Assembly (NCBI RefSeq): GCF_003018115.1
Contig: NZ_CP027458.1
From: Escherichia coli
GTDB taxonomy: Bacteria; Pseudomonadota; Gammaproteobacteria; Enterobacterales; Enterobacteriaceae
Length of the DNA stretch: 64,000 bases
Strand: one strand, 5' to 3'
The position numbers are program-made. Below, piece after piece: positions 33,326 through 36,300 of the stretch; within the stretch, counting starts at the first letter, position 1, and every line of letters begins with the position of its first letter.

Positions 33326-36300
33326 TCATTTCAATAAACCTGGCGACCTCTGCCATCCCTTCCTGATTTTCAGCCTGCCAGCGTTCAGCACGCAGTCGCC
33401 GGGCTTCGTTCTGCATGGTCGTACTGACCAGACCGGAGATATTCACGTCATACGCCTTGAGCAGCTGATAGCTGTCGCTGTCAACTGTCACTGTAATACG
33501 CTGCTTCATAGCACGCCTCTTTTGACATACTTCTGGTATGCATATCAGTATATATTATTATGATGCAAAAATCAGCGCATTAATACACATACTGTTATCT
33601 GGCTTTTAGTAAGCCTTATTTATTTTACCTTACATTATGTTAACCAATAAAAATTAAAATCAGACTTATAAAAACAAAGCGTAATTATCGAATGACCATT
33701 TCCGGCAGATCCGATTTTTCTGTTATTTACGGGTTTCCGGAAGTGTACCACGCTGAGGAAATCATCATATTGCTGTTTTCCTCCCCTGCGCGGCGCATCA
33801 CAGGTCAGGGAGATGACACAATATATAGTGCCATGAGCAGCTGAACTAAGCACTACATGTTGTGCTTACGGGAGATAGCGCTGTGCGGAGGGAAAGGAAG
33901 ATCCTGAACAGCCGGAAACCGGATCTGTGCGGCAGAGAACGGGCAGGAGATATGATAATTAAGCAGCACACATAAAATCATATCAGATATGATTTTCACC
34001 ATTAAATACAAAACCATATCTGATATTATCAGAAATCAATAACACACAAATCATGCAGGATGTGATTTTTACCTTTAAGAACATTATCAGATGGAGCGTG
34101 CAGGATGGATGAAGAAAGGGTGTTTTCACTCAGCTATGAACAACTAACCCAGTTTGCGGAACGACGCATCCGGGAATGCAATCTGGACAGCCAGGGCGCG
34201 ATTTATCTCTGCGAGTCAGCCAAAGCCGGAGCCGTGCTGATCTTCTGGCATGAACTGGCCATAAATGGCTATGCCTCAATGAATGCCATAAAGAGACAAG
34301 AGCTCATTGACGCCGACGTTCAGCGCCTCAGAAAGCTCATCTGGCCGGAGGATGGCTGGAAATGACTCAGAGCCGCCGACCGTCGCCACTGCAGCGGAGA
34401 GTGCTGATTGTGCTGGCTGCCCTTGATGAAAAACGACCGGGCCCCGTGCTGACGCGGGACATAGAACGGGTGCTGGAGCGAAGCGGGGAAGCCCCGGTCT
34501 ACGGGCCAAACCTGCGCGCCTCCTGCCGTCGTCTGGAGGATGCCGGCTGGCTGCGTACCCTGCGCGCTCCGAACCTGCAGCTGGCAGTAGAGCTGACGGA
34601 GGCCGGCCGGGCTGTGGCACAGCCTCTGCTGCTGGCAGAACAAGACCGCCTCCGGGCAGAACAGCGTGCGGCAGAAGTCGTCGTACTGCCGCTGGTCCCG
34701 GCAGCAGGTCTGCCCGCAGATGGCACTTCTGCCACTGATCTGGAGGTGGAGCTGAACGGCATAACGTATCAGGGCTGCCGTGGGGATTTTGTGGTGCGTC
34801 TCGACGGCAGCACCTGTCTGCAGTTATGGAATAAAGAAGGCAGGGTTGTACGCCGGGAGGGCGATCCGCTGGAAGTGGCGCAGTGGCTGCAGGCCTGTCA
34901 CGATGCAGGAATGGAGGTTCGTGTGCAGGTTAATGAAAGCATCACCCCGTAAAAACATGCCTGCACGGTTTACACATCATCCCATGGTGGCAGCCGGTTA
35001 ACTTTCCTGCGCCACCAGTGGAAAGAGGCCGTGAGCAGTCCGAACAAAAAACCCCCCGTGATACTTATAATTATGGCCTCACCTGCCACCATTCCTGACG
35101 GCCCCCAGTAGATAAACCACATTGCACATCCCCAAGAAATGCCCCATAAGCTCCCCATCAACAGCGTGACCTGCCAGAACGGCATAAAGGGTAATGGCGG
35201 AAGCCGGATACCCAGCCGCCAGAGAATACACAGAAGAGGAGGGGCATAATTGCTCCGCCACATCTTTTTGCTATCCATCAGGGCAATGGCCCGGGCTTTT
35301 TTCTGCTCAAAGGTCACAGGAGCACCTCCGTTCCATGATGTAAACGTGACACAGCTTATTGTTATTGATTATTATTATCATGCTGTGGTTATGTTGTCAT
35401 GCATCAGTACACTGACAAAAGTACAAAAGAAAGGAAAACAGGCAGATGAACAGAAAATATTATTTTAATAATATGTGGTGGGATGGGTGACGGGGGGATA
35501 TATGCTGTATATGTCATGGGATTATGATTTTAAATACAGATTACTGTTCTGGTGTATTTCTCTCTGCGGAATGGTTTTGTATCCGGTTGCAAAATGGTAT
35601 ATTGAAGATACAGCTCTGAAATTTACCCGGCCTCATTTCTGGAACAGCGTTTTTTTTGCTGATACACCTGGAAAAATGGGATTGCTTGCTGTTTATACGG
35701 GTACTGTTTTCATATTATCTCTTCCGTTAACTCTGATATATATTCTTTCTGTTATTATAAAAAGGCTGTCTGTAAGATAGACAGCCTTAAATACCCCAGA
35801 ACTTATTCGCTTTTTCCACAAGCGTTTCATCAATCAGTGCACCGATGACAGCCATCAGTAAACCATATCCGATAATGCCTAAAGCGCTTCCGGTAAGAAT
35901 ACTGAAGACCAGAGCAACAAGAGCCGTTGCGGCATTACCTGCTATGATGGTTTCTGTTTTAACAAAAAAAGGACGCCAGTTACCTGTCCGAGCAGCCTTA
36001 CCAAACTCAGTGATCCAGTCGGCAAAATTTGTAATTTTTCCTGCATATCCCAGTCCGCGACGGAACCTGTTCAGATTAGACGATATATCAGACAGTTTCA
36101 CAGCCATAGCCCCCGCAGAAAGAGTACCTGCGAGAGACGATATTCTGTACGGTTCATATATTCATCCGAGGCAGGAATATCGGCCCGGTACAATCTGTCC
36201 GGGCCGGATGGGTAATTTACAGGATGTTCGCGATGGATTTAGCCAGCTGCTCTTCCAGTACAGGCTTCGCTTCTTCAAACTTCAGGTTAACCTTGTTGGC

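Follow-up and report, generated by a model that had tools for sequence, protein, structure and literature searches.

Genes and features of the locus

The stretch of Escherichia coli plasmid DNA analysed here (64,000 nucleotides (nt) of contig NZ_CP027458.1, assembly GCF_003018115.1; hereafter the window) carries the remains of a pore-forming colicin gene, cia, and, convergent with it, those of the corresponding immunity gene, iia. The features that bear directly on this locus are, in order of position:

35446-35490, plus strand: native start of iia, with the ATG at 35446, reading MNRKYYFNNMWWDG and ending at a premature TGA (35488-35490)
35475-35780, plus strand: out-of-frame remainder of iia, an open reading frame (ORF) of 101 codons with a GTG start
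35480-35482, plus strand: frameshift site, GGG in the window versus GGGG in intact alleles, i.e., a 1-bp deletion at codon 12/13 according to the alignments
35762-35788, either strand: intergenic hairpin that overlaps the 3' end of iia and, on the minus strand, is terminator-like for the colicin gene
35787-36107, minus strand: chimeric colicin ORF of 106 codons, with its ATG start at 36107-36105
35787-36103, minus strand: cia remnant proper, codons 523-626 and the stop codon, including the hydrophobic hairpin H8-H9; homology to intact cia ends at 36103
36096-36103, either strand: junction stretch of 8 near-identical base pairs, TTTCACAG in the window, CTTCACAG in the cia parent and TTTCACTG in the traT-side parent
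36104-36216, minus strand: traT-distal segment, containing codons 1-17 of a small ORF (start at ATG 36157-36155), then two out-of-frame codons and a stop
36217-36948, minus strand: orphan F-type traT, 243 codons, intact (PF05818, E=4.5e-82)

Only 6 nt separate the stop codons of the two convergent ORFs (35475-35780 and 35787-36107), and, as expected for an E1-type immunity gene, iia is located downstream of cia and on the other strand. Judged by their sequences, both ORFs are true homologues of the respective colicin and immunity genes rather than chance ORFs. The preliminary description of this DNA had recognized a truncated pore-forming colicin with a convergent immunity gene in the layout normal for pore-formers, which is borne out by the positions of the ORFs and by their matches to PF01024 and PF03526.

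The toxin remnant belongs to colicin Ia

The 106-residue product consists of Met-Ala followed by residues 523-626 of colicin Ia. It matches the 'Colicin pore forming domain' family of Pfam (PF01024, E=3.1e-25) over profile positions 91-184 of 185 only, so that a complete channel domain is not present. Among structures in the PDB, the best match is colicin Ia itself (1CII, chain residues 500-602, E=1.9e-55), followed at a distance by colicin Ib (1.3e-23), pyocin S5 (7e-23), colicin E1 (1.7e-11) and colicin B (3e-4), and there is no match to colicins A or N at E<=1e-3. Furthermore, 99 of 105 residues (94%) are identical to residues 522-626 of the intact 626-residue colicin Ia encoded by plasmid pRM7190-2 (L012). 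By these comparisons the remnant is unambiguously assigned to colicin Ia, of the E1/Ia/K class, and the subtype suggested in the preliminary description (colicin A/B/N-like) has to be abandoned given the gap between the scores for colicins Ia and B, the lack of any for A or N, and the PF03526 match of the immunity ORF.

The channel domain of colicin Ia comprises ~177 residues in 10 helices, of which H8 (580-594) and H9 (597-612) form the hydrophobic hairpin (PMC2585860). The surviving piece is the C-terminal ~59% of this domain, with the hairpin (580-612) retained and a single Thr-to-Ile change in it relative to intact colicin Ia. The length of 106 residues and the presence of the hairpin were thus correctly given in the preliminary description, but the claim that only the hairpin remains was too narrow, as residues 523-626 survive. 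The translocation domain and the central Cir receptor-binding domain are absent: homology begins at residue 523 of 626, and the DNA upstream of it is traT-distal. RefSeq labels the remnant a partial pseudogene ('colicin-like pore-forming protein; incomplete; missing N-terminus'). NCBIfam yielded no family match for the remnant, the immunity ORF, intact Iia or the DUF6404 protein encoded nearby, and only spurious coiled-coil matches for the full-length colicin.

The deletion junction

The three-way alignment of the window with a cia parent (L003) and a traT-side parent (plasmid pCFSAN004179G, L006) places the breakpoint in the 8-bp stretch at 36096-36103, in which the window differs by one mismatch from each parent and all three share the exact core TTCAC. 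Plasmids in which cia reaches past the breakpoint align to the window only as far as 36103, and plasmids of the traT side, with the gene order traT, 87-codon hypothetical gene, traD (pCFSAN004179G), align from 36096 on, through traT. A crossover within such a short near-identical stretch is the signature of illegitimate recombination. As the alignments show, a single event of this kind removed cia codons 1-522, and with them the translocation domain, the Cir-receptor domain and the initial ~40% of the channel domain, and joined codon 523 to the 5' end of the small ORF that follows an F-type traT.

On the far side of the junction, the segment 36104-36216 is ~94% identical to the region downstream of traT in pCFSAN004179G and represents the 5' part of a small traT-distal ORF, MNRTEYRLSQVLFLRG…. 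It is from this segment that the 106-codon ORF takes its ATG (36107-36105), in a frame other than that of the small ORF; the start codon of the chimera is not of colicin origin. The source of the 17 fused codons is the 87-codon hypothetical gene found between traT and traD in some F-like plasmids (positions 2801-3061 of the pCFSAN004179G record).

The immunity gene is frameshifted

The 101-residue product of the GTG-start ORF matches the family of colicin E1-type immunity proteins (PF03526, E=1.3e-6). It corresponds to residues 13-111 of Iia, with 95 of 99 residues (96%) identical to WP_001080730.1, which RefSeq names 'colicin 1A immunity protein'. In intact relatives (pO104_H7, L002; L003; L004; pO104_H21, L009; and pRM7190-2), iia comprises 111 codons from the ATG that matches 35446. 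No such uninterrupted frame is present in the window, where translation from the native ATG would run for 14 codons and meet a stop at codon 15; the annotation by the Prokaryotic Genome Annotation Pipeline covers the last 69 codons only (35571-35780).

The Kyte-Doolittle hydropathy profile of intact Iia contains a weak aromatic segment (residues ~9-25) ahead of two strongly hydrophobic ones (~31-50 and ~77-106). It is the weak segment that the frameshift interrupts, and the basic N-terminus is lost along with part of it. The preliminary description of a small ORF with several membrane segments was correct insofar as two strong segments and one weak one can be recognized in the 101-residue product; the ORF is not an intact gene, though, but the frameshifted remainder of one.

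The same G deletion is present in 12 independent complete assemblies (identity of at least 99.7%), as assessed by match length and identity, and two of these (L001 and L005) are identical to the window base for base across 35400-36230. Sequencing error can therefore be rejected as the cause, since the run is just 3-4 G long and the 12 assemblies, two of them checked base for base, come from different laboratories and agree. An additional small difference from pRM7190-2 is the absence of 15 bp between the cia and iia stop codons.

Distribution of the junction and states of iia

Queries spanning the junction identified 42 carriers in PLSDB and 52 among the 5,426 complete E. coli genomes, a carrier being defined by coverage of at least 80% of the query, with the breakpoint confirmed by alignment in the representatives fetched. 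An earlier count of 464 records at a coverage of 80% or more overstates the spread of the junction because plasmids in which cia reaches the breakpoint also cover 80% of that query. The carriers are plasmids of E. coli that produce Shiga toxin (STEC), of the pO113 type and others with ehx, from serotypes such as O113:H21, O104:H21, O104:H7, O178:H19 and O22:H8. The state of iia was checked in at least one representative of each BLAST class, and the remaining members were assigned by match length, identity and RefSeq annotation, with the following result:

Window type, 12 genomes: G deletion
pO104_H21 type, 6 genomes: intact (WP_021292998.1)
pO104_H7 type, 5 genomes: intact (WP_001080730.1)
pRM10466 type, 8 genomes: stop at K59 and a T deletion
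pRM14516, 1 genome: T deletion only
pO113-like, 20 genomes: stop at K59 and a T deletion, with a further 2-bp deletion in typical representatives

In pRM10042, which is pO113-like, the 5' end of iia is also heavily diverged. Altogether, iia is intact in 11 of the 52 junction genomes, whereas the remaining 41 carry one or another inactivating lesion, which is the pattern of decay rather than of maintenance. On this reckoning, no fewer than two independent routes, and probably three, led to inactivation.

Outside the junction family the picture is different in that, of the 1,017 PLSDB records matching iia, about half have an intact 111-codon gene and no cia at all. In the one such example that was examined, the IncF plasmid pDA33137-178 (L004), the orphan iia is at 4006-4341 and homology to the window ends right after the terminator hairpin.

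Decay of the remnant

The colicin fragment itself has been altered in several carriers of the junction. In pRM14516 it contains an internal stop, in the pO113-like plasmids a Gly-to-Glu replacement lies within the hydrophobic hairpin, and in strain 07-4299 the junction ATG is replaced by GTG. A site-by-site list of the remnant-specific changes includes 9 nonsynonymous or nonsense changes versus 6 synonymous ones, a count that is compatible with relaxed constraint but is not informative either way.

In the pO113-like plasmids (L008, positions 2338-2709; L011, L018 and L019), 14 codons of the small ORF are brought into frame with the remnant by a difference of 1 bp, resulting in an ORF of 123 codons whose product RefSeq annotates as a protein (WP_001373114.1 and WP_052892432.1).

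Regulatory signals

The native promoter region of cia was deleted along with the 5' part of the gene. No LexA box (CTGT-N8-ACAG) is found within 7 kb of the remnant; there are two in the window, at 27528 and 43859. The first of these, the perfect box CTGTATATGCATACAG at 27528-27543, lies just upstream of DinI-like and umuD genes, the position of which was inferred by offset from an annotated relative.

The remnant shares its orientation with traT, and a scan of the region between them revealed no canonical intrinsic terminator. Transcription of the remnant could, at most, come from traT read-through, and base pairing is predicted for the G-rich stretch in front of its ATG. One promoter-like candidate was noted upstream of iia:

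35346-35375, plus strand: GTGACA, 18-nt spacer, TATTAT, a consensus match only

In a promoter and terminator scan of the region, candidate sites were no more numerous than in shuffled sequence, and the intergenic hairpin alone was convincing. This hairpin, which survived the deletion of cia, has a predicted folding energy of -14.9 kcal/mol on the minus strand (z = -3.4) and -17.6 kcal/mol on the plus strand (z = -7.4). The GTG at 35475 is not preceded by a Shine-Dalgarno sequence.

Genomic neighborhood

On the other side of iia, three genes adjoin the module:

34105-34365, plus strand: hypothetical gene
34362-34952, plus strand: hypothetical gene
34970-35317, minus strand: gene for a DUF6404 membrane protein

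All three are found beside iia in every IncK, IncF and STEC plasmid examined (L003, L004 and pRM7190-2), even where cia is wholly absent, and form one module with it.

The locus is bordered, in the window as well as in the close relative examined, by a maintenance segment of IncI type (ccdAB, integrase, parM) on one side and by a segment with traT, an IS481 remnant, RepFIB and ehxCABD on the other. The F-type traT at 36217-36948 is solitary and is flanked by a fragment of an IS481-family transposase gene (37225-37344) and the gene for a RepFIB initiator (38119-39096). The combination of traT, IS481 and RepFIB looks like a conserved mosaic block, as it recurs in plasmids that differ in replicon and mode of transfer (pO104_H7 being IncI1/MPF_I and the close relatives of the window F-type). 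The O178:H19 plasmid NZ_CP024291.1 was considered as the same plasmid as the window and rejected: the two are identical at the colicin locus but only 97-98% identical elsewhere.

Amid debris of insertion sequences, the window also bears the enterohaemolysin operon ehxCABD, genes for a YadA-like adhesin of 1,437 residues and its partner of the OmpA family, and an L-lactate permease gene with lutABC-like genes (ranges, as given, ~40747-47900, 49128-53441 and 54841-59296). Three segments of ~600 bp (12544-13144, 18188-18777 and 21467-22007), which match each other with 93-98% identity and lie beside ssb-like genes and pseudogenes, may be repeated elements of the leading region.

Interpretation of the locus

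Taken together, these observations make it highly probable that the locus is a non-functional decay scar of a colicin Ia module (cia-iia) that arrived with IncI-type backbone genes and has been drifting neutrally. Under this scenario, the module would have come in with the backbone genes of an IncI-type plasmid. Illegitimate recombination then deleted cia codons 1-522 and fused the remnant to the small traT-distal ORF, the segment of which lends it an ATG. The immunity gene outlived the deletion and subsequently lost one G at codon 12/13 in the plasmid lineage of the window; sister lineages with the same junction have other lesions in iia or an intact gene. The remnant is not expected to act as a colicin because it has neither the parts required for binding and crossing into the target cell nor an SOS promoter. 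Most likely, the plasmid represented by the window confers no colicin Ia immunity or a much reduced one, and we infer that the whole locus is drifting neutrally.

Several observations weigh against this interpretation. Apart from the frameshift, the iia codons of the window are undamaged, and the ATG at 35502 has a run of six G (35492-35497) 4 nt ahead of it, which makes some re-initiation conceivable. Going by one representative per class, the 106-codon frame of the remnant is open in 51 of the 52 genomes. Finally, raw pairwise ratios of nonsynonymous to synonymous polymorphism (pN/pS) among the remnants range from 0.1 to 0.5, which could suggest some constraint, although each pair differs by 10 substitutions or fewer. 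Most of the synonymous differences among remnants match states found in intact cia alleles; these variants may have been imported by recombination with intact cia, which would confound pN/pS.

The preliminary description proposed that the immunity gene was retained after the loss of the toxin and still protects the host from colicin producers. This idea is sound in general but misfits the plasmid in question, given the frameshift and the minority of junction genomes in which iia is intact. Spelled out, the idea is that, after the 14-codon leader, ribosomes would re-initiate at GTG 35475 or ATG 35502 and produce an N-terminally shortened yet protective Iia. Consistent with this possibility, the 99 remaining codons have no further lesion, the rest of the window allele is the same as in the intact WP_021292998.1 of pO104_H21, and the leader stop (35488-35490) is followed by the G run and the ATG at 35502. 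A more general argument comes from the plasmid collection, where intact iia without cia is common, and from a published survey that argues for selection on orphan immunity genes (bioRxiv 10.1101/2024.11.06.622277). Against it, the frameshift deprives Iia of its native start and of the basic residues at its N-terminus and cuts the weak first hydrophobic segment, GTG 35475 has no Shine-Dalgarno sequence, and the sisters with the same junction lost the gene independently through nonsense mutations or frameshifts (41/52), which speaks against strong selection for immunity in this family of plasmids. Accounting for both sides, a functional immunity gene appears improbable, and residual immunity through re-initiation at either codon is unlikely.

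A more specific version, for which we see little likelihood, is that re-initiation at ATG 35502 yields an Iia that lacks the weak first segment and still neutralizes colicin Ia, with a related possibility being a membrane function of the remnant translated from traT read-through. Should the ATG 35502 product prove protective, the N-terminal helix of an E1-type immunity protein would be dispensable.

Pore-forming colicin domains act from the periplasmic side of the membrane and are harmless when made in the cytoplasm. Recruitment of the remnant to a new function as a small membrane protein, made from transcripts that read through from traT and modulating, for example, membranes or incoming colicin Ia channels, is very hard to credit: the nearly ubiquitous open frame, the orientation shared with traT and the lack of a canonical terminator between the two, the in-frame 123-codon fusion to the start of the small traT-distal ORF in pO113-like plasmids, and the retention of three C-terminal membrane segments would all be in its favor, but the internal stop in pRM14516, the Gly-to-Glu change in the pO113-like hairpin, the loss of the start codon in 07-4299, the mostly nonsynonymous remnant-specific changes, the predicted pairing before the ATG and the variation of the upstream frame between plasmid classes all speak against it. 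With regard to the three segments, a study of C-terminal colicin Ia fragments, in which the fragments were added from outside the membrane, reports a transition to a low-conductance state that was interpreted as a three-segment channel (PMC2230624).

The locus is of little importance by itself, being an ordinary trace of decay on a virulence plasmid of Shiga-toxin E. coli. Of modest value is the exact cia-traT junction, a clean clonal marker for the block of the remnant, traT, the IS481 remnant and RepFIB, a block that neighbors the ehx operon in those plasmids that were examined and is found again on STEC plasmids that differ in replicon and transfer type (IncI1/MPF_I in pO104_H7 and F-type in the close relatives of the window).

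Comparison with known systems

The closest counterpart of the locus is the colicin Ia operon of pRM7190-2 and of ColIa plasmids of the IncI1, IncK and IncF types. The last 104 codons of cia are 94% identical to it at the protein level, and the order of the convergent iia, the intergenic hairpin, the DUF6404 gene and the two hypothetical genes is the same as in pRM7190-2. The window differs from the operon in that cia codons 1-522 and the promoter are gone, iia is frameshifted and 15 bp fewer separate the stop codons, and the upstream neighbor is traT in the window versus yagA in pRM7190-2.

With the A-type colicins (A, B, N, U and Y), the locus shares the Pfam superfamily of the pore domain and the convergent layout of the immunity and toxin genes. 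Immunity proteins of the A/B/N class have four membrane helices, and those of the E1/Ia/K class have three (PMC7064778). The immunity ORF of the window is of the E1 type (PF03526), with an intact form of 111 codons, and is assigned by its family to the E1/Ia/K class, defined by three helices, whereas the A-type colicins are paired with four-helix proteins.

Truncated colicin genes with leftover immunity genes are a kind of locus that is already well documented, and truncated cia remnants, in particular, have been noted in bovine-associated E. coli (PMC6723558). The locus also resembles the orphan immunity genes beside heavily truncated toxins described in the survey cited above (bioRxiv 10.1101/2024.11.06.622277): in both cases, one and the same truncation of a pore-former is found on many diverse plasmids, with the cognate immunity gene alongside. 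The family described here differs from those cases in the fate of the immunity gene, which has been inactivated, in several ways, in 41 of 52 genomes including the window. It therefore provides a counter-example to the view that selection generally keeps orphan immunity genes beside truncated toxins, and looks like a case of continuing decay.

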